Shown here one piece after another: positions 16,892-56,056 of a stretch of 64,000 nucleotides of DNA (its first letter is position 1; the number at the start of each line of letters is the position of its first letter). The stretch covers positions 586,919 through 650,918 of the forward strand of contig CAVYKS010000009.1 in NCBI GenBank assembly GCA_963769145.1, given 5' to 3'. The translations under genes were made by a program, and so were the position numbers. A model generated the notes under the pieces. That model had not been told where the DNA came from. It saw only the letters and a program-made list of their open reading frames with translations, and did no database searches. This DNA comes from an uncultured Actinomycetota bacterium (GTDB lineage: Bacteria; Actinomycetota; Actinomycetes; Streptosporangiales; Streptosporangiaceae).

Positions 16892-17800
16892 CTGCGGCTG
16901 CCTGGCGAGCGCGACGCCCTGTCCGGCCCACATCGAGAGCGCTTCGATCTCCCCGGTCGTCCCGGTCATCGGTGGCGCAGGCTCGTAGCGAACGATTGAT
17001 TCGCCAGAGGCGAAGTGCGCGATCACGTCGCCCTCTCCAGGCCGCTGCCCCGGTGCGGGGCGGCCCGCTGCCTCCCACGCCTTGGCCGTCGAGTTGCGGA
17101 GGGCGCGATGGGGAGAATCGGGCCACCCGACTTCGTAGAGGTTGGGGTACCACTGGGGATCGGTCTCTGTGGCGGCCATCAGCCGACGCCGGTAATCCTC
17201 GTGGATCGGCATCTCCTCGGCTAGCAGGAACCGCGTGCCCAGCCACGCGGCCTGCGCACCCAGGGCGAGCACGGCCGCGACTCCGCGAGCGTCAGCGATC
17301 CCGCCAGCCGCGATCACCGGCACCGGCGTCACCGCGTCCACCACGGCGGGCACCAGCGGCAATGTCGCGACGCTGCTCCACACGTGACCGCCGGCCTCCC
17401 AGCCTTGCGCGACGACTACGTCCACGCCGGACGCGACTGCCCGCCGTGCCTCCTGCGCGCTGCCGACCGTGTGCATAACGATGCCCCCGGCGTCGTGCAC
17501 AGGCTGGACGTAGCCGCTGGGATCCCCCCACATAAACGAGACGATCCGCAAGCCGGCATCAAGGGCCTGGTCAAGGCGACGGTGATGATCTTCGGTGAGA
17601 ACGAAGTTGCCGCCGAACGGCCGCGCGGTCAGCGCCGCCGTCTGACGAACAACCGCTCCAGCGTCATCGGACCAGGTCAGCGTCACCATGCCGAGCGCGC
17701 CGGCGTTCGACACCGCCGCGGCCAGCTGCGGAACCGCGGCCATAGGTGCCTGGACGATCGGCTGCTCAATCCCCAGCAACTCACACACTGGCGTACTCAT
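16838..17800 (-). CDS. Nitronate monooxygenase (NMO/2-nitropropane dioxygenase family)
   Basis: The N-terminus LLGIEQPIVQAPMAAVPQLAAAVSNAGALGMV is the typical NMO signature, and the size is ~320 aa. Confidence 0.85.
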   Translation of the reverse strand: MSTPVCELLGIEQPIVQAPMAAVPQLAAAVSNAGALGMVTLTWSDDAGAVVRQTAALTARPFGGNFVLTEDHHRRLDQALDAGLRIVSFMWGDPSGYVQPVHDAGGIVMHTVGSAQEARRAVASGVDVVVAQGWEAGGHVWSSVATLPLVPAVVDAVTPVPVIAAGGIADARGVAAVLALGAQAAWLGTRFLLAEEMPIHEDYRRRLMAATETDPQWYPNLYEVGWPDSPHRALRNSTAKAWEAAGRPAPGQRPGEGDVIAHFASGESIVRYEPAPPMTGTTGEIEALSMWAGQGVALARQPQSAAEIVSELTSRLDMST

Positions 17801-39933: not shown

Positions 39934-40081
39934 GGCCCGGCCTTCCTTTCCGCCGCTCTGGGCACGCGCAGCGCGATTCGGCCGGCTGGCCCTACGCTGA
40001 GTGTTAATATTTTACGGCTGTATTTCCGGACTGGCGGGCACAACGGATGTGTACAGGCGCCCGATCCGTGGAAGGGGTCAA

Positions 40082-41473: not shown

Positions 41474-41477
41474 CACC

Positions 41478-42860
41478 ATGACTATGCAGAGCCGCAGGGA
41501 TCTGTTCCGGGCCCACCGGCTGATGACTCAGCGGGCGTCGCTAGCGCTGCTGCGCGGCGAGCCCGATATCCCTGACCAGCCGTTGCGCCGCCTGAATGTA
41601 GCGGTGTTCTCCGGTGTGCTTGTCGGTGCGATCGTCATCGGGCTGTTCTTCATCTGGGGCCTGATCGGACACGGCGGTTCGCCGCTGCAGAACCAGCCGG
41701 GCACGCTGGTCATCGACAAGCAGACCGGTACGTCGTTTGTCTTCTGCCGGGGTGACGAGCTCTGCCCGGCGGTGAACTACGCGTCGGCCCGGCTAGCGCT
41801 GAACAGCACGTCGCTGAACCAGCAGACAGTGAGCCAGTCGGCGCTCGCGAAGTTCGCCCGCGGGCCGCTTATCGGCATTCCTGGGCTGCCCGAGCCGTTG
41901 CCCGACAGCAAGCTGCTGATCCGCCAGCCCTGGTCTGTGTGCACCGCTCAGACGACAACTCCCGTAGCAGGCAAGCAGACCGTTACCGTTTTGGCTGTCG
42001 GCATCCCCGTCACCGGTCAACCGCTGGGGAGTGGCGCGCTGGTGGCCAGGGCGCTTGGCCAGGACTGGGTGATCTGGAATGGCCAGCGCCTGGCGATACA
42101 AGCGGGCTTGCTCCCGGCGCTGCTGCGCGTCGGCCAGTCGGTCGTGGCGGTGCCGTCGGTCTGGCTCAATGCGCTGCCCCAGGGACCGGCGTTCGCGCCG
42201 CCGAAGATAGCGCACCGGGGCGCGAAGGTGGCCGGCCCGACCGGCGCGCTCGTGGCTGTCGGGCAGGTCTTCAGCGTGACCGCGGTGGCCGGCACGCAGT
42301 ACTACGTGATGCTCAAGGGCGGCCTGGCTCAGATCACGCAGACCCAGGCGCAACTCTTGGGCTTCGAGCCGGGCGCGCCGGCCCGGGCCACGCTGAGCCC
42401 GCCTGAGGTCGACGGCCATCTCTCGGCGGTCAGGGTACCGGGCGGCGGGTTGCCGAGCAGCGTCCCCGCCGTCACGGCGCCCGCTCCAACCGTCCCGCTC
42501 TGCGTGGTGTACTCCGGCGCGGGCCGAAACCTGACCAGGCAGGTCGAGGCCGGAGGGCAGATGCCGCCCGGCGGAGTGCCGACCGGTGCACCGGGCGGCG
42601 TGGGCCGGGTGACGCTCCCGCCAGGTTCCGGTGCGCTGGTCGGGGCCGATCCCGGGACCGGCCCTGACCCCGGCGTGATCAGCTACTTCCTGGTGGCGGA
42701 CGGCCGCAGGTTCGCCCTCGCGTCGACCAGGGTGGCCGGTATGCTCGGCTACGGCCTCTCGCAGGCCGTGCTCTTGCCCGCGGGCGTCGTTGACCTGATC
42801 CCATCTGGCCCCGCGCTCGACCCGGCAAGGGCAGCCAGACCGGTACCGTCCGGCCGGTAA
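41478..42860 (+). CDS. eccB: Type VII secretion protein EccB
   Basis: N-terminus QSRRDLFRAHRLMTQRASLALLRGEPD, one TM helix, then a large extracytoplasmic domain. It starts 4 nt after the eccD stop. Confidence 0.85.
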   Translation: MTMQSRRDLFRAHRLMTQRASLALLRGEPDIPDQPLRRLNVAVFSGVLVGAIVIGLFFIWGLIGHGGSPLQNQPGTLVIDKQTGTSFVFCRGDELCPAVNYASARLALNSTSLNQQTVSQSALAKFARGPLIGIPGLPEPLPDSKLLIRQPWSVCTAQTTTPVAGKQTVTVLAVGIPVTGQPLGSGALVARALGQDWVIWNGQRLAIQAGLLPALLRVGQSVVAVPSVWLNALPQGPAFAPPKIAHRGAKVAGPTGALVAVGQVFSVTAVAGTQYYVMLKGGLAQITQTQAQLLGFEPGAPARATLSPPEVDGHLSAVRVPGGGLPSSVPAVTAPAPTVPLCVVYSGAGRNLTRQVEAGGQMPPGGVPTGAPGGVGRVTLPPGSGALVGADPGTGPDPGVISYFLVADGRRFALASTRVAGMLGYGLSQAVLLPAGVVDLIPSGPALDPARAARPVPSGR

Positions 42861-42991
42861 TGGGCGTCGGTATTTGCGGCGCACCTAACCGGTCATAACA
42901 CCCAACAGCGGCCGAAGATCAAGAGGCGACCATAAATAGCCCGAACGTTTCGCGTATCGAATTGATAACAGCGCGTAGTTCCCCGTCCGGG

Positions 42992-43020
42992 TTGACGCAA
43001 ATCCTAGTTTTAGCCAAAAT
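42992..43020 (+). promoter_or_regulatory. Candidate sigma70-type promoter upstream of the esx pair (TTGACG-17 nt-CAAAAT)
   Basis: Read directly in the AT-richer 220-nt eccB-esxB intergenic region. This is a pattern match only, and the -10 element is weak. Confidence 0.25.
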
Positions 43021-43081
43021 TGGTCATGTTCCGTGGCGGGAGAGTTTCCTGGTCCTGCCCAGAGTTCACGGGAGGTGTGGG

Positions 43082-43396
43082 ATGGCTGGACAGGTAACCG
43101 TAAACAGAGCGGCGATGGTGACCGCTGCCCAGCAGGTCGAGAGCGCGCTCGGAGAGATCCGCGCTCAGCAGACCCGGCTGGTCGGCACCCACGACACGCT
43201 GCAGGGTGGCTGGCAGGGCGAAGCGTCCACGGCGTTCACCAATGCCTTCAACGAGTTCAACAGCGACTTCGCCATCGTGATCAGCGCGCTCGACGGGATC
43301 CACTCCCGGCTCGTCAGCGGCCACGCCAACTACAACACCGTTGAGTCGGCCAACACGACGACGGCGGGCAAGATCGCAAGCGCACTGAACCGGTAG
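43082..43396 (+). CDS. esxB: WXG100-family protein, EsxB/CFP-10-like
   Basis: 104 aa. W-x-G at GGWQGEA (about residues 44-46). The C-terminal YNTVE (residues 84-88) fits the YxxxD/E export motif. A gggagg SD is upstream. Confidence 0.85.
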   Translation: MAGQVTVNRAAMVTAAQQVESALGEIRAQQTRLVGTHDTLQGGWQGEASTAFTNAFNEFNSDFAIVISALDGIHSRLVSGHANYNTVESANTTTAGKIASALNR

Positions 43397-43416
43397 CAAG
43401 GCAAGGAGACGCGAAG

Positions 43417-43707
43417 ATGAGCGAATACACCGCCGTACATTTCGGCGCGATGCAGACCGCGGAGGCTGACTTCGGCTCGACCTACCAGGCGCTGCAGAAC
43501 ACTCTGACCACGCTGGAGTCCCAGCTCCAGTCCAGCCTGAACCAGTGGACCGGTGAGGCTCAGACAGCGTATTACGCGGCTAAGAAGAAGTGGGACGCCG
43601 CTGCGGCCGACATGGCTCACGTGGTGTCCGCGCTCGGCCAGGTTGTCGGCGTCGCCAACGAGAATTACGCGAACGCCGAGCGGACCAACATGGCGATGTG
43701 GGAGTAA
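43417..43707 (+). CDS. esxA: WXG100-family protein, EsxA/ESAT-6-like
   Basis: 96 aa. W-x-G at NQWTGEA (44-46), YANAE at 84-88, and an aaggag SD. Confidence 0.9.
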   Translation: MSEYTAVHFGAMQTAEADFGSTYQALQNTLTTLESQLQSSLNQWTGEAQTAYYAAKKKWDAAAADMAHVVSALGQVVGVANENYANAERTNMAMWE

Positions 43708-43719
43708 CGCGGGTTCACG

Positions 43720-44229
43720 ATGGGCGCGATTGGCGATCACATGGCGCTTTCGGATCAGGAAAAACTCGATCAGCAGACACCAGCGGGCAGCGGGCAGGGC
43801 GGGTACAACTCGGACGGGTCGGGAAAGGTCAACGACTTCAAGCCGTCGGGGTTGCCCACGTCGAACTGGCCCCCTGGTCTGAAAGCTGACGGACAGTTCA
43901 GCGTGCACAGGGACGCACTGACTCGGGTGGCCGGTCAGATGAATGCCGACCTGACCGAGTTGCAGAACACGCTGAGCACGCTGAACGGCGGCGGGGCCGG
44001 TGGCGCGACGCTCGGTGGCTGGGAAACCGCGGACGGGATGGGAAATAATGCCGGCCAGGCCTACTACGGGATCTCTACGTTCTACCAGTCACTCAACGAC
44101 GTCTACGACCAGGTGATCGGTTACCTGCACCAGACGGTTACCAACTACGCCGACGCCGAGACCACCACGGCGACCGCGGCGAACAACGTGGGCACCGACG
44201 TCGCGCCGGGCCGCCCGAACGGCGGCTGA
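43720..44229 (+). CDS. Hypothetical WXG-like protein, candidate T7SS substrate
   Basis: 169 aa. A helical core carries LGGWETADG (W-x-x) and TNYADAE (YxxxE). It lies immediately downstream of the esx pair. Confidence 0.55.
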   Translation: MGAIGDHMALSDQEKLDQQTPAGSGQGGYNSDGSGKVNDFKPSGLPTSNWPPGLKADGQFSVHRDALTRVAGQMNADLTELQNTLSTLNGGGAGGATLGGWETADGMGNNAGQAYYGISTFYQSLNDVYDQVIGYLHQTVTNYADAETTTATAANNVGTDVAPGRPNGG

Positions 44230-44250
44230 GGCTGCGGGAAGAGGAACCAG

Positions 44251-45627
44251 ATGCTCATCGGAGGTGGCGGTGGGTGGGGTGCGGTCACCGGCAACACCTA
44301 CCAGATCAAGACCATGGCGGTCCCGTCCGCTTCCGCTAGCGGTATGACGGCGTCGGAGATCGAGAAGCTGTTCTCATACCTCGACCCTTCTGCCGTGGCA
44401 GAGGCGGGAAAGGCGCATACGGCGGCGGCCAAGACGCTTCAGTCGATCGCGGATTCTCTGGTCACGCACGCGCAGGCGCTTGCCGACGGCTGGAACGGGA
44501 CGACGGCGCAGGCATCGATCACCGCTTTGCAGCAACTCCACCAGACGGCTGTGCAGCTCTCGCATGCGTCTGCGCAGACCGGTCAGGTGCTGACCTGGCT
44601 GGGCGAGACGATCCTGCCCTACTACAAAAACTGGACGGCGCCCGGCAACGGGGTCATGGGCACCATCGAGAGCTTTTTCGGTAGCAATCCGCAGGATCAT
44701 GCCGCGCAGCAGGTCATGCAGCGGCTCAACGACCGGCTCAGCCAGGCCAACGCTGCCCTGCCAGGCAGCGTCAGCATCAACCTGCCGAAGATCGGCAAGG
44801 CCGGCCACGCCCCCGCGACCACTGGCGGTTCAGGGTCCGGCCGGGGTGCCGGCGCGGCGGCCGGCGGCGTGGGCCTCACGAGCGCAGCCCGCGGCGCGGT
44901 CAGCCCGGCGACAGGCGGCAGCGGCGGTGTCGTCGGCGTCAAGCCTGGTGGTGCCGGTGTGAGCGGCGCTGGCTTTGGCGGCGGTCGCGGCGTGGTGCCG
45001 ACCGGATCCGGCGGGCACGTTTCGCCACCTATCCATCTCGTAAACGTTAATCCGCCCGGCGGTACGCCGCCGAGCGTTGGCGGCGTCCCTGGCGGTCCGG
45101 GAGGCGTACCTGGCGGCGGCTTGTCCGGCGGGACCTCGCCCGGCGGCGGCGTAGCTGGCGGGCCGGGCCCCATCGGTCTCGGGCCGGGCCCGGGCACCGG
45201 TCAGGGAGCGGGCGGTGCACCAGGACTCGGCGGCGAGCCCCCCGGCGGAGTCGGTGTCTTGCCTGGGGAGCCCGGCGGAACCGGCGAGCCGGGCGGTGGC
45301 GTCGGCGGAGGTGCCTCGGGAAGCGCGGGCGCAGTCGGCGAGGACGTAGGGTCCTTGCCTGGCGAGAGCGCGATCGTGGGCTCCGACGGGATGATCGGCA
45401 CCGGGCCGGGGATGGCCGAGGGCGAGGTCGGGTCTGGTAATACCGGGGCGACCGGCTTCCTCGGGGCCGATGACGCGGCGACCCAATCGGGTGGCGGGTT
45501 CCCGATGAGCGGCGGCTCAGGCGGCGGGGGGCGCGAGAGCGAGCGCTACCGGCAGGCCTGGATGGCCGAGGACCTCGATACCTGGGAAGGCCCGGCCGCA
45601 CCGGCCCCATCGCTGATCGGCGAGTGA
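44251..45627 (+). CDS. WXG/PPE-like N-terminal domain protein with long Gly/Pro-rich C-terminal region
   Basis: The N-terminal ~150 aa form a helical hairpin with LADGWNGTTAQA. About 250 aa of G/P/S/V low complexity follow. The conserved-looking tail is ERYRQAWMAEDLDTWEGP. Confidence 0.6.
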   Translation: MLIGGGGGWGAVTGNTYQIKTMAVPSASASGMTASEIEKLFSYLDPSAVAEAGKAHTAAAKTLQSIADSLVTHAQALADGWNGTTAQASITALQQLHQTAVQLSHASAQTGQVLTWLGETILPYYKNWTAPGNGVMGTIESFFGSNPQDHAAQQVMQRLNDRLSQANAALPGSVSINLPKIGKAGHAPATTGGSGSGRGAGAAAGGVGLTSAARGAVSPATGGSGGVVGVKPGGAGVSGAGFGGGRGVVPTGSGGHVSPPIHLVNVNPPGGTPPSVGGVPGGPGGVPGGGLSGGTSPGGGVAGGPGPIGLGPGPGTGQGAGGAPGLGGEPPGGVGVLPGEPGGTGEPGGGVGGGASGSAGAVGEDVGSLPGESAIVGSDGMIGTGPGMAEGEVGSGNTGATGFLGADDAATQSGGGFPMSGGSGGGGRESERYRQAWMAEDLDTWEGPAAPAPSLIGE

Positions 45628-45708: not shown

Positions 45709-46950
45709 CTAACGCCCAAGTCCCTCCGTGCCCGGCAGGCATCCACCGCCGGACTCGAACAACGACTTGTTGCTGAACTCTAGCTGGGTAAGGTAGTGAT
45801 GGCCGTTGATCACCTGGTTGAACAGCGCACCAGGCGTGCCAAACGTCGTGCCGAAACGGTAGGCGCACTCGTCGCCGTTTTCGTTGCCCTGAATGTCGAA
45901 ATACCCGGAGTTGGTGTCCGGGTCGGTTCTTGCCTCATTGATCTCGTGGCTTGTGGGACTGATCTCAGTGTCGGCGTCAGGGTTGTTGTTCGGAGACTCG
46001 ATGACTCCAGGGAAATTGATGTTGGTCCCGCAGGTGACCCCCGTGGCTGACAGGTAGACCGGGAACGGCATGTTCGCGTAGATCTCCTCGAACGGCGTGT
46101 TGCTGAACGAGAACCCTGGCATCACGAAGCTGTGGTACGCGCAGAAGGCCGCGGTCGGCTGGTTGTTGATGGTGCAGGCCTGACCGCCGGCGGTGCTGGT
46201 TGTCGAGCCTGGGTTGAAGCAGGACTCGACGTGCTTGGGCAGGAACACCACATAGATGTGAGAGAGATTCTCCGGCAGGCCGTTCGCGGTCGCTACGGAA
46301 TGGGCCTCACCGTTGACCTGGGAATCGTCGAGGCAAGCGCTATATCCTGAGCCGTCCGCGTAGATCCCGGAGCCGTCCGTTGCGGCCACCGTGCAGCCGC
46401 TCGTAGGCAGTGGGTTGGTGTCGTTGACCGGGCTGCCCAGCTTGATGTCGTAACGAACCCGGCCGTCGGTCCCGAAATACTCGCTCGCGACCGAGAACAC
46501 GTTGCCACCGGTGCCACTCGCATGGGCCACGTCCGATAGGTACTGGGTGATGAGTGCCTTGTAAGACGGATCCATCGAGAAGCCGGCCGGGTTCCAGAAG
46601 ATGGGCGTGATGACCAGAGGCCCGGTTAGCTTCGTCCCCATCATCGCGCCGCCGTGCCAGATCAGCGGAGGCTGGCCGTTGGCGTCGACGCCGGCGTTCT
46701 TGCCCATGGCGTTCGACACCACACGGCCAGGATTCCTGGCCTTACAGCTACTGCTGACAGGCACCGCCGGCACGATGCCGGCCTTGTGGCCTACCCGAGT
46801 CCCAATCCTGGCCAGCGTGACGCAGGCGCTCCCTGAATGCGACGCGGGTTGCGCGAATGCTCCAGTGCTCGCCAACGCCAGCGGGGCGGCTCCCGCTGCT
46901 ACAACCGCGAGGGTCACCCATAGACCCCGCTTGCCGAGTGATCTTGTCAT
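45709..46950 (-). CDS. Secreted hypothetical protein (possible PHI-1/EXORDIUM-like fold)
   Basis: Clear signal peptide MTRSLGKRGLWVTLAVVAAGAAPLALASTGAFA. The mature part has PPLIWHGGAMMG...VITPIFWNP and ESPNNNPDADTEISPTSHE, which loosely recall the plant PHI-1/EXORDIUM family. The family call is tentative. Confidence 0.6.
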   Translation of the reverse strand: MTRSLGKRGLWVTLAVVAAGAAPLALASTGAFAQPASHSGSACVTLARIGTRVGHKAGIVPAVPVSSSCKARNPGRVVSNAMGKNAGVDANGQPPLIWHGGAMMGTKLTGPLVITPIFWNPAGFSMDPSYKALITQYLSDVAHASGTGGNVFSVASEYFGTDGRVRYDIKLGSPVNDTNPLPTSGCTVAATDGSGIYADGSGYSACLDDSQVNGEAHSVATANGLPENLSHIYVVFLPKHVESCFNPGSTTSTAGGQACTINNQPTAAFCAYHSFVMPGFSFSNTPFEEIYANMPFPVYLSATGVTCGTNINFPGVIESPNNNPDADTEISPTSHEINEARTDPDTNSGYFDIQGNENGDECAYRFGTTFGTPGALFNQVINGHHYLTQLEFSNKSLFESGGGCLPGTEGLGR

Positions 46951-47072: not shown

Positions 47073-47444
47073 TCAGCCGATTTCACTTACGTTCGTAAGC
47101 GGGTCCTGGCTGGCTTCGTCGTCTGGCGTTGCGCCGGGTTCCCGCCAGCGGAGCGTGACCTCGAGATGGGCGCCGGCCTCGGCCGATGCGATCACGCCGC
47201 CGAGCTTGCCGTCGAGCGTGACGCCGAAGCTGATCTCGACCTCGGTGGGACGCTTTGCCGTCTCGCGGAAGCCGTCCATCACTTGCGCTGCGGCGGCGGT
47301 GACCGGTGCCAGCGCTTGACGCAGAGTCTTCTGCGCGACTTCGAGGCGATCGCTCAAACCCACAGCACCGCTGCCCGCCCTGGCGGCTGGTGCGACGGCG
47401 ACGGTCGTACCGTCATCCAGGGTGAATTCGATGGCATCGAACAT
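47073..47444 (-). CDS. Trypco-like (trypsin co-occurring domain, CU044_2847-like) small protein
   Basis: 123 aa from ATG 47444. The layout is MFDAIEFTLDDGTTVAVA ... PTEVEISFGVTLDGKLGGVIASAEAGAHLEVTLRW, matching my memory of the small Trypco proteins. It is the last gene of an operon that opens with a trypsin-like protease. Confidence 0.55.
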   Translation of the reverse strand: MFDAIEFTLDDGTTVAVAPAARAGSGAVGLSDRLEVAQKTLRQALAPVTAAAAQVMDGFRETAKRPTEVEISFGVTLDGKLGGVIASAEAGAHLEVTLRWREPGATPDDEASQDPLTNVSEIG

Positions 47445-47467
47445 GGAGTTCCCTCGTACTTCTCGCA

Positions 47468-48712
47468 TCACGGTTGGGCGCACGCGCTTTTCGCCAGAGC
47501 CGGTGGGGAGGAGCCAACCCCTTGCTGTGTCTGCTGCATGCCGTTCAGAAGCGTCGGCAGGGAGGCAGGAGTGTCAACGTAGTCGAGAACGGCCTGCTCG
47601 AATGCCGTGGTCATGTCGGGCAGCATCATGTCTTCGGCGCTGAAGCACAGCATGGAGTTGTCGGCTGGCTGAAGCAGTTTGGCTATCTGCTGTTGCACTC
47701 CCGCGGGATAGACACCGGGTTTCACTGCCTGATCGGCCGAGAACGCATACCCGCCAGGCTGCTGTACCCACAGCGTCTGCGCCCGGCGAGAGGCGAGGTA
47801 GGTGAGCAGTTTCTCGGCATTCGGATTGTCGGTGAACCGGCCCATGAAATCGCCGGAGACCAGGATCGGGGCCGCGGTACCGGCGATCGCGGGGAACCGC
47901 ACGTAGTCGTACCCGGCGGTCGACTTCAGGCCCGTGGCCGAGAGCGCGCCGTGCTGGAGCTCACACCGCCCGGATTCAATCTCGGTGAACCCGGTTGTCA
48001 GCGCCGCCGGCGCTCCGCCATTGATCCCGGCACCGTTGCGCATGAGCTCGCCCCACGTGTTCCAGGCGTACGTGAGGTCGCGGGATGTCCAGAGCAGCTG
48101 GCCGTCGAGCCAGTTCTCGTACGTAGTGGCGTGGTACCTGGACAGCAGGATGTCTGCCACCCAGTCGGCACCCGGCCACCCGGACGTCGGGCCGGAAGCC
48201 AGCCCGAGGCACCATGGTGTGCCGTGACGGGAGAAGTTCTCCAGCGCCGCCCAGCTCGCTGGAGGCGACCGGAGAACGCGCCTTCGGTACCAGATCAGGC
48301 TCTTGACGTCGGCCTTGACGGGAACCGCGTACACCTTGCCAGTCCCAAGCTTGGCCAGGCCTTGCCAGGGCTGGCTGTAGGAACTCAGATCTATGGCGAG
48401 CGGCTTGAGGTCTCCCTCGTAGTTGTCTACCGCGGCCGGGCTCGTCAGGTCGACCAGATCCGGCGGGTCATCGGCCGCCAAGTCGGCGTCGAGCTGCTGA
48501 GTGAGCGCCCGGCTGGTCAAAATCTGGATATCGAACTCGCGCTCGAACGGCTCGACGACCTTTTGGAACGCTCTGTACTCAAGGGACTCCTGAGCCCAGG
48601 GAACCAGGATAGTCACCGTTTCACCTGGCGGCGTACCGCCGCATCCCGTTCCCGCTGCGCCCAGGCCGAGTGCCAGCAGGCACCATGCTGCCCGCGCCCT
48701 GACGCTGCTCAT
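47468..48712 (-). CDS. Extracellular solute-binding lipoprotein (family-1/sugar-type SBP), orphan
   Basis: Lipoprotein signal MSSVRARAAWCLLALGLGAAGTGCGG. The body carries SBP family-1-like segments (VTILVPW..., GWPGADWVADILL). ATG 48712 overlaps the upstream stop as ATGA. No permease or ATPase gene is adjacent. Confidence 0.8.
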   Translation of the reverse strand: MSSVRARAAWCLLALGLGAAGTGCGGTPPGETVTILVPWAQESLEYRAFQKVVEPFEREFDIQILTSRALTQQLDADLAADDPPDLVDLTSPAAVDNYEGDLKPLAIDLSSYSQPWQGLAKLGTGKVYAVPVKADVKSLIWYRRRVLRSPPASWAALENFSRHGTPWCLGLASGPTSGWPGADWVADILLSRYHATTYENWLDGQLLWTSRDLTYAWNTWGELMRNGAGINGGAPAALTTGFTEIESGRCELQHGALSATGLKSTAGYDYVRFPAIAGTAAPILVSGDFMGRFTDNPNAEKLLTYLASRRAQTLWVQQPGGYAFSADQAVKPGVYPAGVQQQIAKLLQPADNSMLCFSAEDMMLPDMTTAFEQAVLDYVDTPASLPTLLNGMQQTQQGVGSSPPALAKSACAQP

Positions 48713-49605
48713 GAGGACTCGAATCGGTATTCGGCCAGCCGGGGACGGTAGGCGAGCTGCGCTAGCACGGCAGCCAGCAGGAACAGGAGCAGTGCACACG
48801 TCAGCGTGGCGGGATGCCCGGCCCACGGATCGCCGGACAGATGCCGCTCGTCGCTCCAGTTGAAGACTCCCACGGCTACCGCGGTCGCCGCGGTCACCAG
48901 CAGAGAACCCCACAGCCACCGGCTGACGTGACGCCGGAAGTAGCGCGTCAGCACGTGAGCCGTCGCCATGGAGAGCAGGACCATGGCGACCACCGGCCCG
49001 AGCAGCGCCCACCAGAACGCTCCGGGATCGAGCGGCCACGCGCGATCCTGTACGCCAAGCGCGTTCTGCTCGGTCCCCTTCAGCGCGCGGAGCGCTGTGA
49101 CGAGATCCCCGTTGCTGCTCGACGCGTAGCCCTCGGCGGCCTCGCCGAGCTGCGGTCCTCCCGCGGCTTGGCCGTAGTCTCTAACCGCGTTCTCGCTGAG
49201 CAACAGGTAGGTCTGGAGCTGGGCTTGGACGTACTGGATACTGCTCGTCCCCTCCTTGCCAGCGCCGTTGTCCTCGGCAGCGAGGGTGAGGTCCTTGCTC
49301 ACCTCGTCGATGTAGTCGACGTAGTCTGATCCGGTGCCGGTCAGCGTGACGTCCTCTGTGGTGAACACGGTCACAAGCGCCGTGTCGGCGTTCATCGCGG
49401 CTATTACCGCGCTCCCGATATCCGTAACAGCCGACTGGGTCCGGCCCGCGGCGCCGATGTCATTGCCCGCCTGAGTCGCGACCCATAGGTACAGCAACGC
49501 GGCGGCGAGCACGCACAGCAGCACGCCGTTCCTGAGCCACCTCAGCACGCTGGCTGGATGAGCGGCACGGAGCCGGCGGTACCGGTCGGCCGCATTGACG
49601 GTCAT
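48709..49605 (-). CDS. 4-TM membrane protein with ~170-aa extracytoplasmic helical loop (GlnX-like topology)
   Basis: TM1 is GVLLCVLAAALLYLWVA, followed by a long polar helical segment and then three more TM helices. ATG 49605 overlaps the vWA gene stop as ATGA. The topology analogy to GlnX is inference. Confidence 0.6.
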   Translation of the reverse strand: MTVNAADRYRRLRAAHPASVLRWLRNGVLLCVLAAALLYLWVATQAGNDIGAAGRTQSAVTDIGSAVIAAMNADTALVTVFTTEDVTLTGTGSDYVDYIDEVSKDLTLAAEDNGAGKEGTSSIQYVQAQLQTYLLLSENAVRDYGQAAGGPQLGEAAEGYASSSNGDLVTALRALKGTEQNALGVQDRAWPLDPGAFWWALLGPVVAMVLLSMATAHVLTRYFRRHVSRWLWGSLLVTAATAVAVGVFNWSDERHLSGDPWAGHPATLTCALLLFLLAAVLAQLAYRPRLAEYRFESS

Positions 49606-51059
49606 GACGCTCCCCTCTCGTCGAACGGCTCGCCGCATGCCTCGCAGTGCTTGGGATGCCATGTGTATGTCGTTTCACCACAAGCGCGACAGACACTCGC
49701 TTCGGCCGGCCGCCGGTCCACCTCGTCCTCACGGTTCGCTCCGGTGATCGAGGTGCCGGTCTTGGTCGAGTCGAGACCGAGCCGCTGCATCTCGCCGCGG
49801 GTGACGTCTGGGCGCACCCGGGTCCGGCCGTCCGTACCAATGACCGCGAGGCTCTCCACCAGCCGCAGCCGGACTGGGTCCGCGGCTACGCGGGCCAGAC
49901 GGATGGCGTGGTCCAGTTCGTCGTCCGCCTCAGCGGTCCGCCCGTGCAGCCACGCGTCGGCGCAAGCCCGCATGGTCACGGCGAGCTCACGCTCTTTCTC
50001 GATCTGGGTGAGACTGTCGGGAATCCTGGTCTGGTAGCCGGGTGTGGCGTGTCGGCGGACGATCAGCGCCGCGTCGGCGCGCCGCTCGCGTTCGCCGTCG
50101 GCGATCTCCGTGAGCAGTTCGACGCGGGTGGCGCGCAGATCCTCTCCCGTGGGCAGCGTGTCGGGGGTAAAGCGCAACGTCAGCTGGTAGCACCTGGTCT
50201 CGGCCTCCCACGAACCAAGAGGGATGTCGATGACCGCGCCGTCGGCCGGCTGCCGGCGTTGCGTCAGGTCGACCCGGGCGGGGTGCGTCTGCGCAATGGA
50301 GTCGATCAGGAAGCGGTCGCTGGGGCACAGGCGCAGGTACGTCCTGGGCACCACCAGACGCCGCGCTCGGCGGATGAGCTGGGTGAAGTCGTCGGCGAGA
50401 TCGGCGATCTGGAGCACGGCGGTGGCGTCGCCGTGCAGCGCTTCGGCGATGCGCAGTAACTCGTTGTAGTCCCAGTCGCCCCCGAGACCACGTACGTCAC
50501 AGAGGAACTGGCCAGTGCAAGCGTTCAGCGCCGCGTCGAGCGCAGTCGGCGTCTCGTGCTCGTTCTTGCCATCGGTGTACAGCACGGCGTGACGCATGGT
50601 GCCCGCGGCCGACTGCGTCGCGAAGAGCTGGCTGGCGGCGGACAGCCACCGGCCGATCTCTGTACCGCCCGCAGGCCGCAGGCGCATCACCTGACGCTTG
50701 GCCGCTGCCCTGGTCTTGGCATCGATCGAGGCGAGCCCACCTGTAGACGGGAACACGGACTCGGCCTGACGGTTTCCCGCGATGATCCCGAGGAACGCGC
50801 CGTCGGGCAGCGCGTCTATAGCGGTGCAGGCCGCGCGCCGTGCTTCAGGCATCTTGTTCTCGTTCATCATGGATAGCGACCGGTCCATGATGAGAACTTC
50901 TGCGAGCCTCGCCGCGGGCGGGGCCAGCCCGGTGGGGCGTGCGGAAACCGTGACAAGCGCGTCGACGCGCGAAGTGCCGATTGCGAGGTCACGGGCCGCG
51001 TCAATCTCGATGTTGAAGTTCAGCTCACCTGCGGTCCCGCCGCTCACCGGCTCCGTCAT
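49602..51059 (-). CDS. Cytoplasmic von Willebrand factor A (vWA) domain protein with C-terminal zinc ribbon
   Basis: MIDAS-type VLIMDRSLSM followed by LYTDGKNE. The C-terminal CRACGETTYTWHPKHCEACG is a CxxC...CxxC ribbon. No signal peptide. A ggaggag SD is directly upstream. Confidence 0.8.
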   Translation of the reverse strand: MTEPVSGGTAGELNFNIEIDAARDLAIGTSRVDALVTVSARPTGLAPPAARLAEVLIMDRSLSMMNENKMPEARRAACTAIDALPDGAFLGIIAGNRQAESVFPSTGGLASIDAKTRAAAKRQVMRLRPAGGTEIGRWLSAASQLFATQSAAGTMRHAVLYTDGKNEHETPTALDAALNACTGQFLCDVRGLGGDWDYNELLRIAEALHGDATAVLQIADLADDFTQLIRRARRLVVPRTYLRLCPSDRFLIDSIAQTHPARVDLTQRRQPADGAVIDIPLGSWEAETRCYQLTLRFTPDTLPTGEDLRATRVELLTEIADGERERRADAALIVRRHATPGYQTRIPDSLTQIEKERELAVTMRACADAWLHGRTAEADDELDHAIRLARVAADPVRLRLVESLAVIGTDGRTRVRPDVTRGEMQRLGLDSTKTGTSITGANREDEVDRRPAEASVCRACGETTYTWHPKHCEACGEPFDERGAS

Positions 51060-51103
51060 CTCCTCCGGGACGGAAAATAACCACTCACTAACATGAAGTC
51101 AGC

Positions 51104-53206
51104 TTACGGGCTGACCGCAGGGCGATCACGCAGATGTAGAGCGCGTTGCCACCACCATTCGATCGGGGGCCGCAAACTGTTCGCCAGGTCGACTATGGCG
51201 ATGAAGTCCGACCTGCTGACGGCGAGTTTCGCGAGCTCCGGGATCATCTCCGACAGGGCCAGCCAGTCGCCCGTGATGCTGGAACTTCCGTACTGAATCT
51301 CGGCGCGCAGCCCGAGCTTCAGATCGGCGCTCACCGAGAGCTCGTCGGTGAGTTCTCGGGCCCTCATCAGGTCCGCCTCGACTGGCGCGCACAAGTCCGT
51401 GACCGCGGCAAGCAGCCTCACGATTGCGATCCGGGCCTCACGCTCGAAGCGCACTTCCTGCACCTGGAGTTCCCCTGCCAGCCGTTCGGCCGCGGCCACT
51501 GCTTCGGCGCGCCGTCCGGCGAGCAGGTGCGTCCGAGCCAGCCCGAAGGCCGCTGCGCCGAGCGCCGGGGCGGTGTCGGCTACCGTCTCGTAGTGCAGGC
51601 GTGCCTGGCCCAGTTCGCCGCTGATCTCGGCGCACAGCGCCAGGGCAAGGAGGGGGATCAACTCGCCGGGCAGCGCGTCGCGGACAGTCCTGAAGTAGTC
51701 GTCGGCGGCGAAAGCGTCGCCACCGGCCAATGCGATCAGGCCGGAGTACCAGGCGCGGATCCAGAACCACCTAGGCAGGCGTGTCTGGCCGAGGATACGC
51801 TGCGCCTCCTCGGGGTCGCCGCGCCGCAGCGCTGTGCGACACGTGACGAGCGAGGCTCGGCAGGCTTGCGTCCTGGCCTGGTCATCGGGATCAGCCAACG
51901 GCGCCGGCAGTGCCGCCGCCACGTCGGCGGGTGCCGGCGTGGTGAACGGCGCGGCCATCGTGAACCCGCGGTCTTGCGGCAGGCGAGCCGTGATCCAGTG
52001 CTCGAGCGGGCGTGGCTCGCCAAGTCCGCCGTGCAGCGGCGCGGTCATCGAACCGAACAGCGCGGAGGGCCTGGTGATCCGTCTGCTGGCGGTGGGCGCC
52101 GCCACGACCTGCCGGATCACGCCGCTCAGCTGTTCCGCGAACTGGCGGGCCGATACGAACCTGCGCTCAGGCGTGCTGGTGTCGGTGGCACGTTTTAGCA
52201 GCCGGTCCAGCCCGACGACACCGGGCCCGGCCGGATCGCTGAGGTGGCGACGGCAGAGCACCTGCAAGGTCGAGCCAAGACAGAACAGGTCGAAGCCGAC
52301 CGTGGGGAACATGTGTTCCCGGTCTGTCTTCGGAGGCGCGTACGCCTCCGTGTAGCTGGTGACTGGGCCTGGTTTCCCGAGCTTCCATACCGCTCCGAAG
52401 TCGATAAGTCGTACCCGGTCGCGCGGTCCGTCGGCGCCTTGCTCACCGAACCTGATGATGTTCTCCGGCTTTACGTCGATGTGAAGCAATCCTCTGGCGT
52501 GCAGGTAGTCGAGCGCCTGGAGGATCTGGAGTCCGTGCACGAGGATGACCTCGAGCCGGTCGTCGGCCCGAACAGACAGCGGCGTGCCACGCACGTACTC
52601 CAGGACGAGATAGGGCCCCTCGGGCTGGTAGCCGTAGATGCGCACGATGCTGTCGTGCCTGAGCCCGACGAGCGCGTCGCGCTCCAGTTGGGCGGTCTCG
52701 GCAACCGACTTGGTCAGATCCTTGAGGACCACGTCCGTCTCGAGGTTACGGTCGTAGGCCAGGAGCGCCGCCCCGAAGCTCCCGGCACCGAGCTTGCGCT
52801 TGATCTCGTAACGGCCGGCAACCAGTTCGCCGACGCGCGCGCGGGTGAAGTCGAACCGGCGGCCGCAGTCCGGGCAGAACCCCGTGACCCGGCCGGGAGT
52901 TCCGTCATGTCCGCGCCCGACCGGGAGCCGGCAGCCCGCGCAGAACCGGCGTTCCTCGGCGAGGGTCGTGTCGATGTCCGCGGGCTCGTCCACCGTCTCG
53001 GGTATGGCGTCGGCAGTCACGAGGCCCAGACCCCACCAAGGTTCCGAGCGAACCAGCGCGGCGCCTGCGACAACCGGGCCGGTCTCCGGTGCGGCAGCCC
53101 GCAGTGGCCTGCGGTCACACGCCGAGCAGAACCCCTGGTCGTCAATGTCGCCTCGGCCACAATCGGGGCGGTCGCACCTAGCCATGGTCCTTCTTGTCCT
53201 CGTCAA
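51104..53206 (-). CDS. PknG-like Ser/Thr protein kinase (zinc ribbon + rubredoxin-like CxxC pairs, kinase domain, TPR domain)
   Basis: FCAGCRLPVGRG...FCPDCGRRFDF, then GELVAGRYEIKRKLGAGSFGAALLAYDRN, VVLKDL, HIDVKPENI and IDFGAV. A C-terminal TPR-like region follows (RWFWIRAWYSGLIALAGGDAFAADDYFRTVRDALPGELIPLLALALCAE). Colinear with M. tuberculosis PknG as recalled from memory. An extra N-terminal CDRPDCG...FCSAC ribbon is present. The alternative start ATG 53185 overlaps the upstream stop. Confidence 0.85.
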   Translation of the reverse strand: MTRTRRTMARCDRPDCGRGDIDDQGFCSACDRRPLRAAAPETGPVVAGAALVRSEPWWGLGLVTADAIPETVDEPADIDTTLAEERRFCAGCRLPVGRGHDGTPGRVTGFCPDCGRRFDFTRARVGELVAGRYEIKRKLGAGSFGAALLAYDRNLETDVVLKDLTKSVAETAQLERDALVGLRHDSIVRIYGYQPEGPYLVLEYVRGTPLSVRADDRLEVILVHGLQILQALDYLHARGLLHIDVKPENIIRFGEQGADGPRDRVRLIDFGAVWKLGKPGPVTSYTEAYAPPKTDREHMFPTVGFDLFCLGSTLQVLCRRHLSDPAGPGVVGLDRLLKRATDTSTPERRFVSARQFAEQLSGVIRQVVAAPTASRRITRPSALFGSMTAPLHGGLGEPRPLEHWITARLPQDRGFTMAAPFTTPAPADVAAALPAPLADPDDQARTQACRASLVTCRTALRRGDPEEAQRILGQTRLPRWFWIRAWYSGLIALAGGDAFAADDYFRTVRDALPGELIPLLALALCAEISGELGQARLHYETVADTAPALGAAAFGLARTHLLAGRRAEAVAAAERLAGELQVQEVRFEREARIAIVRLLAAVTDLCAPVEADLMRARELTDELSVSADLKLGLRAEIQYGSSSITGDWLALSEMIPELAKLAVSRSDFIAIVDLANSLRPPIEWWWQRALHLRDRPAVSP

Positions 53207-54869
53207 TCTCGCCGATGCGGCGCTCGACCTCGGCGATATACCGTTCCACCGACATGCGCGCGGCGGTGACGTCGATCGGAGCTAGCCACACCGCGTCGTT
53301 GGCCTGGTCGTACAGGTCAGCAAGCGGTTGGTCCTCGGCGCCGAAGTAACGCGTCGCACGCTCCCGGTTCACCTCAAGCGCCTGCCGCAGATTCTCTAGG
53401 CACTCGTCCAGTTGCCTCGACTCCTGCGTGAACGATGAGATCTGGCCAAGCGCCGTGACAGCTAGCTCGCGGATGGCCGCGAGCTCGGTGTTGGGTTCCG
53501 TGACGCGGGCTACGGCAAGCCTTATGCGCAACGTAGGCGCGTGGGCGTGCGGCAGCGTAGGCGGCTCGCGGAACCGGCGTTCGTTCTGGCTGCTGAGCCG
53601 GGCAGCGTCATCCTCGGCGGCGGCGAGCTCGGCGACGGGCGCCTGCGCATCGGCACCGGTCACGCTGTGCTGGGAACGAGCGACGAGCGGTTCAGGGTCG
53701 AGCGCCACCTCGTACGCCAGCTTCCTGCGAGGGAGCGGCCCGTCGAATCCGAGCACGAGACGGACGCCGCGCGACCGGGCCGCAACAGTCAGCGGACGCA
53801 GCACCTCGCGCATGAGCGTATCGGGGGACTGTGCCCGGTCGACGCCGACGATGACCAGGCAGGCTGGCGGTACGCGCCGCAACAGCCGATAAACCAGATC
53901 AGGCTCGTCGGGGGGTAGCCCGAATCGTTCGGAAAGGTAATGCGTGATTTCGGAGAGCGACCGACCGCGGGCGTCATACGCGGCATCTATGGCCCCGAGC
54001 CCCAGGACAGTGTCCCGGGGCGCCTCCGCGAACTGTGCCTCTGAAGTCCCGGCGCGGGCCGCCGGATCGGCGGTGCGGACGAGCCGTACCAGCCACCCCG
54101 TACCCGTTCCGGCGCTGCCGCCAGGGAGCACCACCGTCCCCGCCCAGCCGCCGCTGAGCAGTCGCGTCAGCTCTCGCGTCAGGGCGACCCGCAAAGTATC
54201 GTCTCGCTCCAGCTCTGGTAGCCCGTCATCGGATAGTCCGCGAAGCGTGGGCTCGCCAGCAACGAATGGGGCGACGTCTGGCAGGTACTCGCGGATCGTC
54301 TCGGTTGGTATCATCCACGCGGCTCTGGCGTCGGCGTTATGGAAGTCCGCGACGACGATGCCGATCACCCGACCCGCGTGGTCGCCTTCGAGCATCATCA
54401 CTCCGGCGCCGGAGTAACCGGGCTCGATCCACTGCCCGTCGGCTCGCACCCGGTTCAGCAAGCCGAGTTCGCCCCCGCGACCCCCATCGCCGGCGAGTTC
54501 CGCGTCGACCGAGATGCCGTACGGCTCCGCCCTCGGGAAGCCGTGCGCACGCACCCGGCCGCCGGAGATAGGGGCGCACCACAACTTGGTTTGTGCGTCG
54601 CACGGCGTCGCCTCGTCAAGCACGAGCAGTGCGACATCGCCGCGTCGAGTGTCGCCGCCTTGGTATGCCCGGGAGCCAGGAACCACGCGCGCGGTAATGC
54701 TCCACTCCGGTCGGCAGACAGCGCTTCGGACCGATACCGGCTCGTCCTCGTTCCCGGCCACATGAGCGCAAGTGAGCACGTGCCGTTCGTCGAGCAGCAC
54801 CCCGGCACCACGGCTGCGCCCATCCACTCTGACCCGCCAGGCGTGCTCCGCATGGAGGTGCTTCTCCAT
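53178..54869 (-). CDS. Cytoplasmic trypsin-like serine protease fused to a ~370-aa C-terminal region (possible degenerate P-loop domain plus coiled coil)
   Basis: The catalytic contexts are HVLTCAHV (His), GDVALLVL (Asp) and EPGYSGAGV (Ser). No signal peptide. The middle has GGSAGTGTGW (Walker-A-like, no Lys) and, ~80 aa later, ACLVIVGVD (Walker-B-like). The C-terminus is helical. Confidence 0.75.
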   Translation of the reverse strand: MEKHLHAEHAWRVRVDGRSRGAGVLLDERHVLTCAHVAGNEDEPVSVRSAVCRPEWSITARVVPGSRAYQGGDTRRGDVALLVLDEATPCDAQTKLWCAPISGGRVRAHGFPRAEPYGISVDAELAGDGGRGGELGLLNRVRADGQWIEPGYSGAGVMMLEGDHAGRVIGIVVADFHNADARAAWMIPTETIREYLPDVAPFVAGEPTLRGLSDDGLPELERDDTLRVALTRELTRLLSGGWAGTVVLPGGSAGTGTGWLVRLVRTADPAARAGTSEAQFAEAPRDTVLGLGAIDAAYDARGRSLSEITHYLSERFGLPPDEPDLVYRLLRRVPPACLVIVGVDRAQSPDTLMREVLRPLTVAARSRGVRLVLGFDGPLPRRKLAYEVALDPEPLVARSQHSVTGADAQAPVAELAAAEDDAARLSSQNERRFREPPTLPHAHAPTLRIRLAVARVTEPNTELAAIRELAVTALGQISSFTQESRQLDECLENLRQALEVNRERATRYFGAEDQPLADLYDQANDAVWLAPIDVTAARMSVERYIAEVERRIGEIDEDKKDHG

Positions 54870-55006
54870 GCCTCAACGGTACGGTGACGACGCAAGCGCC
54901 GCCATGGTGATTGACAGGCCTTACGCCGGATCGTTACGGGGGCTGGTTCCTCGATCCGGACGGGCAAAGGCATTAAAAACCGCGAAGAAGAGGAAATTAT
55001 TCGGTA

Positions 55007-56056
55007 GCGAATGTATTTCAGGTTTGGCCGGTCCTGTAACCGGTTGCTGTTTCCCTTCGCCATGGGTCGCTGAATTAGTCGGCGTAGACCTGTTCAAGGT
55101 CGGCAAGATGAATTTCGTGGCTTGGGTCGGCTTGCAGTTCACGGTTGAAGCCTGCGCCTGAGTAGCAGCTGAGTACCGTGTCCCGGGTGTCGAATCCCTT
55201 AACGGCGAGTAGATCCCGCGCCCGGCGCAGGCGTTCGATGTGGCGGAGGTCCATGACCCGGTCCCATTTCGCCTCGCCCAGGGACAGGATCTTGCGCGGG
55301 TGCCCTGGCTCGGCCGGCGCGAGCACCACGACGTCAACCTCGATCTGCGGCCGGCTGCTGGCGATCGAGCGCAAGGCCGGCCGCGATCGCGTAGTCGCGG
55401 CAGATCGCTTCGAAATGCGGTCCTGTTACCTGCGACAGGAAGCGTGCACGGGCTCCGGGCCAGACCGCTGGCCCGCCGCCGAGTTCGAGGCGTGCCCATT
55501 GGCGGCTCATGATGGCCTGGTAGAAGGTGTTAAGCGGCTCAGCGATGCGGTACCTGGCCCGCCCCGACCTGAACAGGTCGGGCTCTTTGATCAGCAGCCG
55601 GCAGTCCTCGAGTACGCGGAGCGGATGCGCTATCTCGTTGGACTTCCTGCCGATGTAGCCGGCGATTCCGCTGGAGGTGTTGTTTCGGGCTTCCCGGAAG
55701 AGCGGGCTCTGCGGATTCAGCACGGTCCGGATTACCCAGGCGTCAAAGTCGGCGAGGTTTGCGGGGGTGTCCTCCCGCAGGAGTTCCCGGCGGTACGCGG
55801 GAGTTCCGCCTACTACTGAGTGCACGAGCACGGCCAGCCTGGGATCGGAGATCTCCCAGAATCGGGCGGCGTGCCCGGTAGCCGAAGGGGTGGACGATCA
55901 GCTCAAGACCTGCCCGCCCGCGAAGCGGTGCCCGCCCGGACAGCAGGCCGCCCATCACTGACATCGCCGAGCCGCAGAGCAGGAGCCGTGCCCGGCTCGC
56001 GGCTCCGCTCCCTCCCGGGCCGAGTTCCCGGGCGATGATTGATGGCAGGGCGGGCG
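55007..56056. repeat. Direct segmental duplication, copy A (degraded)
   Basis: Aligns by eye with 57591-58755. It is near-identical except for one replaced block (about 55338-55370 versus 57922-57993), one ~76-nt deletion relative to 58310-58385, and single-base indels. Confidence 0.85.
55075..56056 (-). pseudogene. AAA/DUF234 ATPase gene, 3' partial duplicate with frameshifts
   Basis: ORF pieces 55075-55374, 55334-55831 and 55743-55964 together reproduce the C-terminal ~340 aa of the intact protein at 57659-59269. They sit in different frames, and the P-loop half is missing. Confidence 0.75.

Follow-up and report, generated by a model that had tools for sequence, protein, structure and literature searches.

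In mycobacteria and corynebacteria, the Ser/Thr kinase PknG belongs to a pathway with GlnH, a solute-binding protein (SBP), and GlnX, a protein with four transmembrane (TM) segments (4-TM), in which periplasmic ligand occupancy controls the kinase (PMC6069109; PMC9769921); a further account has the TPR domain of PknG tying signal detection to activity (PMC8546545). Trypco1 and Trypco2 were defined, in multicellular bacteria, as small companions of the trypsin-like peptidases of NTPase-centred conflict systems (PMC7159879), and a 2025 preprint describes the same families, under the name Pepco, as pre-assembled β-barrels of 9-10 subunits that resist sodium dodecyl sulphate (Evans et al., bioRxiv 10.1101/2025.11.14.688446). 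A Pepco barrel becomes a lethal pore once its partner protease cuts off a C-terminal tail of about 20 amino acids (aa), which is disordered, rich in charged residues and proline, and follows a conserved Ile just before the cut (I97 in SsPepco) (bioRxiv 10.1101/2025.11.14.688446). In iSTAND ternary systems, an N-terminal peptidase joined to an inactive STAND domain is accompanied by a von Willebrand factor A (vWA) protein and one NTP-dependent regulator, the AAA+ ATPase MoxR (Kaur et al., 2020, PMC7159879). TerY-P triads, finally, consist of a vWA protein, a PP2C phosphatase and a zinc-ribbon Ser/Thr kinase (Anantharaman et al., 2012, as cited in PMC11090510), and TerY-P-like triads have been reported as phosphorylation switches and as stand-alone anti-phage defence modules (PMC11090510). 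Here we describe an operon, with relatives of components of all these systems, in a 64,000-nucleotide (nt) stretch of contig CAVYKS010000009.1 from an uncultured member of the Streptosporangiaceae; this whole stretch is called the window.

The operon encodes, in order, a trypsin-like protease, a PknG-family kinase, a vWA protein, a GlnX-like 4-TM protein, an exported SBP lipoprotein and a Trypco1 protein (Table 1). With a probability of roughly 55%, we read it as one co-transcribed signalling-effector module that acts as an outside-in death or defence switch. This reading draws on directly observed gene content, tight linkage, deep co-conservation, intact catalytic residues, a dead NTPase, effector swapping and gene fusions, and all functional statements made here are computational. 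The operon most resembles an iSTAND-type ternary system with a receptor-coupled kinase in place of MoxR. Full-text literature searches returned no paper joining PknG with vWA, trypsin or Trypco, and kinases are not mentioned in the Pepco preprint (bioRxiv 10.1101/2025.11.14.688446). In the literature searched, we thus found no published description of what appears to be a well-conserved arrangement in which a receptor-kinase module is wired to death effectors activated by a protease.

A conserved six-gene operon

Six ORFs are tightly packed on the minus strand of the window, at 47073-54869. The G+C content of the window is about 68%, and its nearest relatives are Streptosporangiaceae-like metagenome-assembled genomes. 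Read directly at the junctions, the TAG of the protease gene and the ATG of the kinase gene overlap in ATGGCTAG at 53178-53185, and overlaps of the ATGA type join the vWA to the TM gene (49602-49605) and the TM to the SBP gene (48709-48712). The kinase and vWA genes are separated by 44 nt, with GGAGGAG ahead of the vWA ATG, and the SBP and Trypco1 genes by 23 nt, with GAGGGAA ahead of the Trypco1 ATG. A preliminary description of this DNA had set out these six ORFs together with the overlaps and the Shine-Dalgarno sequences in both gaps, and the ORF list and the junctions agree with it throughout. All six products are also recorded, with identical starts, as called genes together on one public NCBI/ENA contig of 705,685 bp; where the kinase start had been offered as either 53185 or 53206, those gene calls begin at the ATG at 53185 (693 aa). 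A simple scan for promoters and terminators gave no signal over background.

Neighbourhoods of related genes were collected by exact-protein look-ups and by a metagenome scan with a vWA profile, and loci were screened by tblastn with twelve queries, the six proteins each of the window and of a divergent locus, L032. A scan of a genome collection, with one kinase sequence as query, returned two close loci, and the census is biased to what these scans returned. The window shares the full order protease-kinase-vWA-TM-SBP-Trypco1 with loci L005, L006 (identical to L007 and L017), L008, L012, L014, L019, L022 (identical to L021), L041 and L032, and it is kept in about 20 loci with unrelated flanks. 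Locus L041 belongs to a cultured organism, Streptomyces polygonati (GCA_042650325.1), which has the complete six-gene form, and in L032 all six proteins are 31-38% identical to those of the window, with the same Pfam signature. Contigs that start inside the cluster (L011, L013, L027 and others) are consistent with the six-gene order, and in-group vWA genes with an assessable upstream region were all preceded by the kinase gene, and that in turn by the protease gene.

The flanks are specific to each locus, and include PIN/RHH toxin-antitoxin genes, an IS4 transposase, MarR and MerR regulators, a CHAT protease, sugar and amino-acid metabolism genes and a LuxR-STAND regulator. Because they differ between loci, the conserved unit is exactly the six-gene block, and its arrangement is far beyond chance. 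Co-location in other genomes, on which the preliminary description had staked its proposal, is therefore a consistent observation: the order is the same in all assessable related loci. The system is widespread in Streptomyces and in Streptosporangiales-like actinobacteria, with hundreds of protein clusters at 90% identity.

The last gene is the variable one. A five-gene core without Trypco1 is found in Streptomyces sp. NBC_01235 (L003/L004) and in L025/L026; in L038 a TIR domain is fused to the N-terminus of the protease and there is no Trypco gene, a second TIR-bearing representative exists, and in L039 a Trypco2 gene lies upstream and is divergently encoded. The five-gene core is thus constant, and Trypco1 is an exchangeable effector outside it. 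Trypco1 directly follows the vWA gene on the short contig L015 (3-1430), and follows the vWA and TM genes, with no SBP gene, on L029 (4-2642); the two contigs either represent natural variants without the sensor or are artefacts of assembly.

Several components of the core also occur as fusions. Protease-kinase fusions are represented by four proteins with less than 50% mutual identity, one of them in its genomic context (L040). A kinase-vWA fusion (P0111, 1146 aa) comes from one contig, that of L025, and has neither a PknG_rubred match by Pfam nor the CxxC pairs. A sequencing artefact is possible, as one metagenome contig is its only source; it therefore carries little weight, and the four protease-kinase fusions are more convincing.

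Two neighbouring genes were seen at individual loci. In L032, a gene for a 1042-aa AAA_16-TPR-GerE regulator of the MalT/LuxR-type STAND class (14407-17535) shares the strand of the Trypco1 gene and begins 10 nt past its end. In Streptomyces sp. NBC_01235, a divergent gene for a PAS-GAF-SpoIIE (PP2C-type) phosphatase lies just upstream of the protease gene (L003, 5724-7790); S. polygonati has no phosphatase gene in that position, so the NBC_01235 gene may be unrelated.

Proteins of the operon and their described counterparts

The sensing half of the operon can be compared with GlnH, GlnX and PknG protein by protein. Hydropathy gives the 4-TM protein four TM segments, with a single periplasmic domain about 145 aa long. 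It matches the GlnX family NF058618 with an E-value of 7e-13 and 48.5 bits, against an NCBI curated cut-off of 250; its 409-aa homologue in L032 matches the family more strongly, in two stretches (E 5e-29, 101.7 bits), and homologues carry the precomputed Pfam assignment PF28326 (Sensor_actino). These profile matches identify the protein as a GlnX homologue that falls under the curated threshold for full membership. GlnX itself has two periplasmic four-helix bundles in tandem, unlike the single periplasmic domain of the window protein, whereas divergent relatives keep a longer form of 372-409 aa, with a TM3-TM4 loop of about 100 aa seen in L032.

The SBP differs from its counterpart by family. 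The window copy has only a weak SBP_bac_11 match (0.002), but its orthologues match SBP_bac_1/8, and there is a weak resemblance to MalE and other carbohydrate SBPs; GlnH binds amino acids and is of the SBP_bac_3 type. A signal peptide and a lipobox cysteine are conserved among the orthologues. No ABC permease or ATPase genes lie beside the SBP gene in the loci with listed genes or in the checked flanks of the window. Comparison by sequence with solved structures gave no meaningful relative of the SBP, and no ligand can therefore be proposed.

The kinase matches PknG_rubred (6e-11), Pkinase (1.5e-23) and PknG_TPR (7e-25) in Pfam, all beyond the cut-offs. Its best solved relative is PknG of M. 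tuberculosis (2pzi, E 1.4e-52), aligned over aa 54-568, a span that takes in the rubredoxin, kinase and TPR domains. The CxxC pairs of the rubredoxin domain are C82xxC85 and C104xxC107, and K155, E168, D237, K239, N242 and D262 (of the DFG motif) are invariant across 27 kinase sequences, including members at about 35% identity. By architecture, the kinase is a true member of the PknG family, with a catalytic core predicted to be competent. It also carries an extra, conserved zinc ribbon at its N-terminus.

Like the GlnH-GlnX-PknG set, then, the operon places a kinase with rubredoxin, kinase and PknG-type TPR domains beside genes for a GlnX-family 4-TM protein and an exported SBP lipoprotein, and the logic, from periplasmic ligand through TM transducer to kinase, is probably the same. 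The gene order is different, the kinase has the added zinc ribbon, and the operon adds a protease, a vWA protein and a death-type effector. No gene for an FHA-domain substrate of the GarA/OdhI type was found in or beside the cluster in the listed loci. The operon was accordingly rejected as a canonical GlnH-GlnX-PknG pathway, given its different SBP family, one-domain transducer, lack of a linked FHA gene and extra components.

The vWA protein matches VWA_3 (5e-11; also VWA_2 and VWA) and, weakly, a double zinc ribbon in Pfam. In the alignment its metal-ion-dependent adhesion site (MIDAS) is intact, with D59-x-S61-x-S63, T133 and D163 invariant, as are the ribbon cysteines C457, C460, C472 and C475, which follow a variable linker. 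A profile of the family aligns aa 13-438 with the structural-genomics entry 4fx5 (E 2e-80). Ahead of the linker is a Ser/Thr patch in which G428, L429, S431 and T434 are invariant in 31 sequences, and which is a candidate phospho-acceptor. Divergent members do not conserve its "STKT" motif itself and have a Ser/Thr-rich patch at the same place; a universal STKT motif was for this reason rejected. One could speculate that the phosphorylated patch binds the protein's own MIDAS, by analogy with GarA, which binds itself after phosphorylation. In the Trypco-less five-gene Streptomyces form, the vWA protein has an extra low-complexity tail ending ...PVDAS-COOH, seen in 10 of the 120 listed homologues (L003, 12242-13657; P0339-P0360); the vWA protein of S. 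polygonati, where Trypco1 is present, is without it. This tail may be an alternative protease substrate or a docking peptide.

TerY-P triads likewise pair an intact-MIDAS vWA protein with an adjacent Ser/Thr kinase, and zinc ribbons are again part of the set. Two distant relatives of the vWA gene, in L033 and L036, lie in triads that run from a PknG-TPR kinase through a PP2C with a double zinc ribbon (L033, 1651-2679; L036, 8973-10004) to the vWA protein, and tblastn found no protease gene in either locus. This suggests that the kinase-vWA pair descended from a TerY-P-like triad. Unlike such triads, the operon has its ribbons on the vWA protein and the kinase N-terminus, and adds the protease, SBP, TM protein and effector; as it has no PP2C, it is not itself a TerY-P triad.

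The protease begins with a Trypsin_2 domain (aa 21-171, E 9e-9 by Pfam) whose catalytic H36, D78 and S153 do not vary across an alignment of 30 homologues. An AlphaFold model of the whole protein (pLDDT, the predicted local distance difference test, 86.8; predicted template modelling score, pTM, 0.85) gave trypsin-fold matches alone in Foldseek, to HtrA/DegS-type proteases. The C-terminal ~360 aa have no family match, and their alignment shows a pattern like a degenerate P-loop. The preliminary description had left this region to structure prediction and Foldseek: a separate model of the C-terminal 359 aa (pLDDT 84.7) matches AAA+ folds alone (ORC, Cdc6, clamp loader), and weakly, with a best E-value of 4e-3, a probability of 0.97 and a template modelling score of about 0.3.

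Because these structural matches are weak, the claim of a P-loop fold rests on a sequence-profile link to active STAND proteins, which had not been part of the earlier account. A profile of the region, run against 1.84 billion representative proteins, found 829 relatives, and the long ones are Trypsin_2 + AAA_16 + WD40 proteins and caspase + nSTAND1/NACHT + WD40 proteins. The Walker A motif reads GTGTGW, with no Lys, in the window protease versus GSGKS in the active trypsin- and caspase-STAND-WD40 relatives, and Walker B reads VDRA versus LDEA in active STAND relatives. The protein therefore has neither a functional Walker A (GxxGxGK[ST]) nor a functional Walker B (hhhhD[DE]), nor does it have a C-terminal TPR or WD40 sensor. 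Its models instead end in long helices (H405-432, H461-509 and H534-560, pLDDT ~90), for which, taken as a whole region, there is no solved match. By these comparisons the C-terminus consists of a STAND NTPase that has been inactivated and, where relatives carry a repeat sensor, a coiled coil, and with its NTPase switch predicted to be dead the protease would need control from outside.

The Trypco assignment of the last protein is clear. It matches Trypco1 with an E-value of 1e-22 (81 bits, cut-off 24.6) and the CU044_2847 family with 3e-19 (69.5 bits, cut-off 23). The conserved core ends ...GAHL(D/E)VTLRW, at W100, and is followed by a tail, variable and 12-25 aa long, in which Pro, Asp, Glu, Gly and Ser abound. 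The Trypco1 gene shares an operon with the protease gene in at least 14 loci. All six protein assignments made in the preliminary description (trypsin-like protease, PknG-like kinase, vWA and zinc-ribbon protein, GlnX-type 4-TM protein, SBP of a sugar-type family unlike that of GlnH, and Trypco-like protein) have thus been upheld, the SBP through its orthologues.

With the trypsin-Trypco (Pepco) modules of STAND/Avs and vWA-MoxR systems (PMC7159879; bioRxiv 10.1101/2025.11.14.688446), the operon shares a protease paired with a Trypco1 that has an acidic, Pro-rich tail, the fusion of the protease to a STAND-type NTPase, a vWA protein, an exchangeable effector and a distribution in filamentous actinobacteria. 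It departs from them in that the STAND domain is predicted to be dead and has no TPR or WD40 repeats, in the absence of MoxR, VMAP-C and EAD, and in that the NTP-using switch is a Ser/Thr kinase apparently wired to an extracytoplasmic sensor. No MoxR gene was found in the loci with listed genes and no VMAP-C in the protease, so that the operon is not a VMAP or vWA-MoxR ternary system; the protease was also rejected as a VMAP in its own right, having no VMAP Pfam match at E<=0.1. The likeness to iSTAND ternary systems is one of architecture, and the differences are the regulator, a MoxR AAA+ ATPase there and a PknG-like kinase here, and the membrane sensor, which is not described for those systems (PMC7159879).

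Proposed mechanism and its alternatives

In the proposed mechanism, the exported SBP_bac_1-type lipoprotein would bind an extracytoplasmic ligand, carbohydrate-like by family only, and would signal through the GlnX-like protein to the TPR domain of the kinase, after the GlnH-GlnX-PknG model. The kinase and the vWA protein, its partner or substrate, would then switch on the protease, which would trim the acidic, Pro-rich C-terminal tail off a Trypco1 oligomer, perhaps after about W100, to yield a membrane pore that could be lethal to the cell. In sister systems, the output would be Trypco2 or a protease-fused TIR domain instead.

Several observations speak for this reading. Among them are the operon structure, with overlaps or 23-44-nt gaps that hold Shine-Dalgarno sequences, the fusions, the co-conservation and the effector swapping. 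The sensing half is homologous to GlnX-PknG, and the exported SBP has no transporter genes beside it. We also count the invariant active sites of the kinase and protease and the invariant MIDAS of the vWA protein, the Pepco-like tail of Trypco1, the dead STAND NTPase of the protease, and relatives with kinase-PP2C-vWA triads, which resemble TerY-P-like defence modules. The suggestion in the preliminary description of a ligand-gated kinase-protease module for signalling or defence has been strengthened by the effector swapping, the fusions and the inactive STAND domain; its functional part stays as conditional as it was, and its view that the combination had not been described before agrees with the literature searches. 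The exchangeability of Trypco1, its absence from most Streptomyces copies and the experimental work on Pepco had not figured in that description.

Several points weigh against the outside-in switch. We know of little precedent for an extracellular trigger of an abortive-infection-type effector. PADLOC models gave no match for the vWA, TM, SBP or Trypco proteins, and the matches that they did give were generic ones to the kinase domain and one marginal one to the protease. In the majority of Streptomyces copies neither Trypco nor TIR is linked to the core, which can therefore exist without a recognisable death effector, and two short contigs apparently lack the SBP gene (L029) or both the TM and SBP genes (L015). 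The Ile that precedes the Pepco cleavage site is absent from the Trypco1 homologues, which have an invariant Trp followed by R, H, L, C or S; I97 of SsPepco and W100 of Trypco1 were compared by description rather than by direct alignment of positions, and with no Ile before the cut the position of Trypco1 cleavage is a guess. The model pathway is itself demonstrated only in part: contact of GlnX with GlnH, and with PknG, is described as an assumption (PMC9769921).

A bolder version of the outside-in switch, which we hold tentatively and at less than even odds, is a "death-receptor" pathway, in which an extracellular ligand would act via the lipoprotein receptor, the GlnX-like transducer, the kinase and the protease on a pore toxin or TIR domain. 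It would provide extrinsic programmed death, or community immunity, in multicellular actinobacteria, with a Ser/Thr kinase replacing the STAND ATPase switch. The ligand might be one such as a glycan or cell-wall fragment from damaged or infected mycelial neighbours.

It could also be that the trigger lies within the cell, a reading that we consider unlikely but substantial. The kinase and vWA protein would then form a TerY-P-like switch for cues from the cytoplasm, such as phage infection, a metal, or a nucleic acid or protein bound at the zinc ribbons, and would set off the protease and effector; the SBP and GlnX-like protein would only tune or localise the system. The triads of L033 and L036, in which neither an SBP nor a TM gene was seen among the triad genes or upstream of them on the contigs, are consistent with such a switch, as are the conserved zinc ribbons on both proteins, the apparent gene losses in L029 and L015, and the fact that known Pepco and TIR systems answer phage proteins within the cell. 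TerY-P-like triads act alone against phage (PMC11090510). It would, however, leave the SBP and GlnX-like genes, which are translationally coupled and retained in all complete systems down to 31-38% identity, in a minor role; the SBP, moreover, retains its export signal and lipobox, and the kinase its PknG-type TPR domain, the part that in PknG links detection to activity (PMC8546545).

Another alternative, in our view rather improbable, accepts the external signal and disputes the lethal output. Under it, the operon would be a PknG-style nutrient or envelope sensor that acts by controlled cleavage of a regulator or of the vWA protein, with Trypco1 as an accessory substrate or channel. The metabolic role of the homologous GlnH-GlnX-PknG set, the nutrient-type family of the SBP and the often ordinary metabolic genes in the flanks would suit it, and so would most of the Streptomyces copies, which have no Trypco or TIR and instead conserve the ...PVDAS vWA tail. 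Linked outputs, where present, point the other way, since the reports of Trypco1 and Trypco2 come almost entirely from conflict or defence systems that carry a protease, in which TIR is typical as an effector. The protease, too, appears to descend from STAND-protease conflict proteins, and no GarA/OdhI-type FHA substrate is encoded in the cluster. That the genes are chance neighbours, or make up a PknG-like sensor operon and an unrelated protease-Trypco operon, is effectively refuted even though each half resembles an independently known system, because the protease and Trypco1 genes flank the other four on opposite sides, genes overlap, about 20 loci share the order despite different flanks and down to 31-38% identity, and there are protease-kinase fusions.

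To our knowledge, prokaryotic protease-effector and STAND systems described so far sense their triggers inside the cell. If the outside-in switch is real, the same death effectors, Pepco pores and TIR domains, would here be wired to a transmembrane receptor-kinase pathway, a prokaryotic counterpart of extrinsic, receptor-mediated cell death. The operon would then also offer a second, independent model for the poorly understood transduction from GlnX to PknG, with an output (proteolysis or killing) that is easily scored, and S. polygonati is a cultured host of the complete six-gene form. It appears to be a natural example of a STAND NTPase switch replaced by a kinase, and it supplies a context for the orphan vWA structure 4fx5.

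Surroundings of the operon

Just downstream of the operon is an ESX-like type VII secretion locus (Table 1). One of its products, with a WXG100 domain at the N-terminus and a C-terminal region that has no assignment, is a possible secreted toxin. Between the two, on the same strand as Trypco1 and 122 nt downstream of it, lies an ORF of 413 aa that has no Pfam match; as its relatives were not seen by the cluster in other loci, it is not counted in the system.

Table 1. Genes of the operon, regions within their products, and neighbouring features, by position in the window
Feature	Position	Strand	Description
Gene 1, protease, 563 aa	53178..54869	minus	trypsin-like domain, inactive STAND NTPase, coiled coil
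Inactivated STAND-type P-loop NTPase domain, protease aa ~225-395	53685..54197	minus	predicted from profile alignment and AAA+ fold matches
Helical/coiled-coil C-terminal region, protease aa ~400-563	53181..53672	minus	long helices in models
Gene 2, PknG-family Ser/Thr kinase, 693 aa	51104..53185	minus	N-terminal zinc ribbon, rubredoxin, kinase and PknG-type TPR domains
Gene 3, vWA protein, 485 aa	49602..51059	minus	intact MIDAS, middle and helical domain, Ser/Thr patch, variable linker, C-terminal zinc ribbon
RLGLDSTKT Ser/Thr patch, vWA aa 426-434	49758..49784	minus	candidate phospho-acceptor
Gene 4, GlnX-like 4-TM transducer, 298 aa	48709..49605	minus	one periplasmic domain, aa ~48-193
Gene 5, exported solute-binding lipoprotein, 414 aa	47468..48712	minus	SBP_bac_1 type
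Gene 6, Trypco1 (Pepco family), 123 aa	47073..47444	minus	predicted protease-activated pore effector
ESX-like type VII secretion locus	35815-45627		just downstream of the operon
EccC-like triple FtsK/SpoIIIE ATPase	35815-39933	minus	type VII locus
EccD with YukD domain	40001-41473		type VII locus
EccB	41478-42860		type VII locus
458-aa protein, N-terminal WXG100 domain	44251-45627		possible secreted toxin
413-aa ORF	45709-46950	minus	no Pfam match
Two overlapping ORFs	54921-55831	minus	different frames, no Pfam matches; possible pseudogene

Just upstream of the protease gene are two overlapping ORFs in different frames, likewise with no Pfam matches. Judged by eye from their read-through translation, they may be a pseudogene, the frameshifted C-terminal part of an ATPase/DUF234-type gene.

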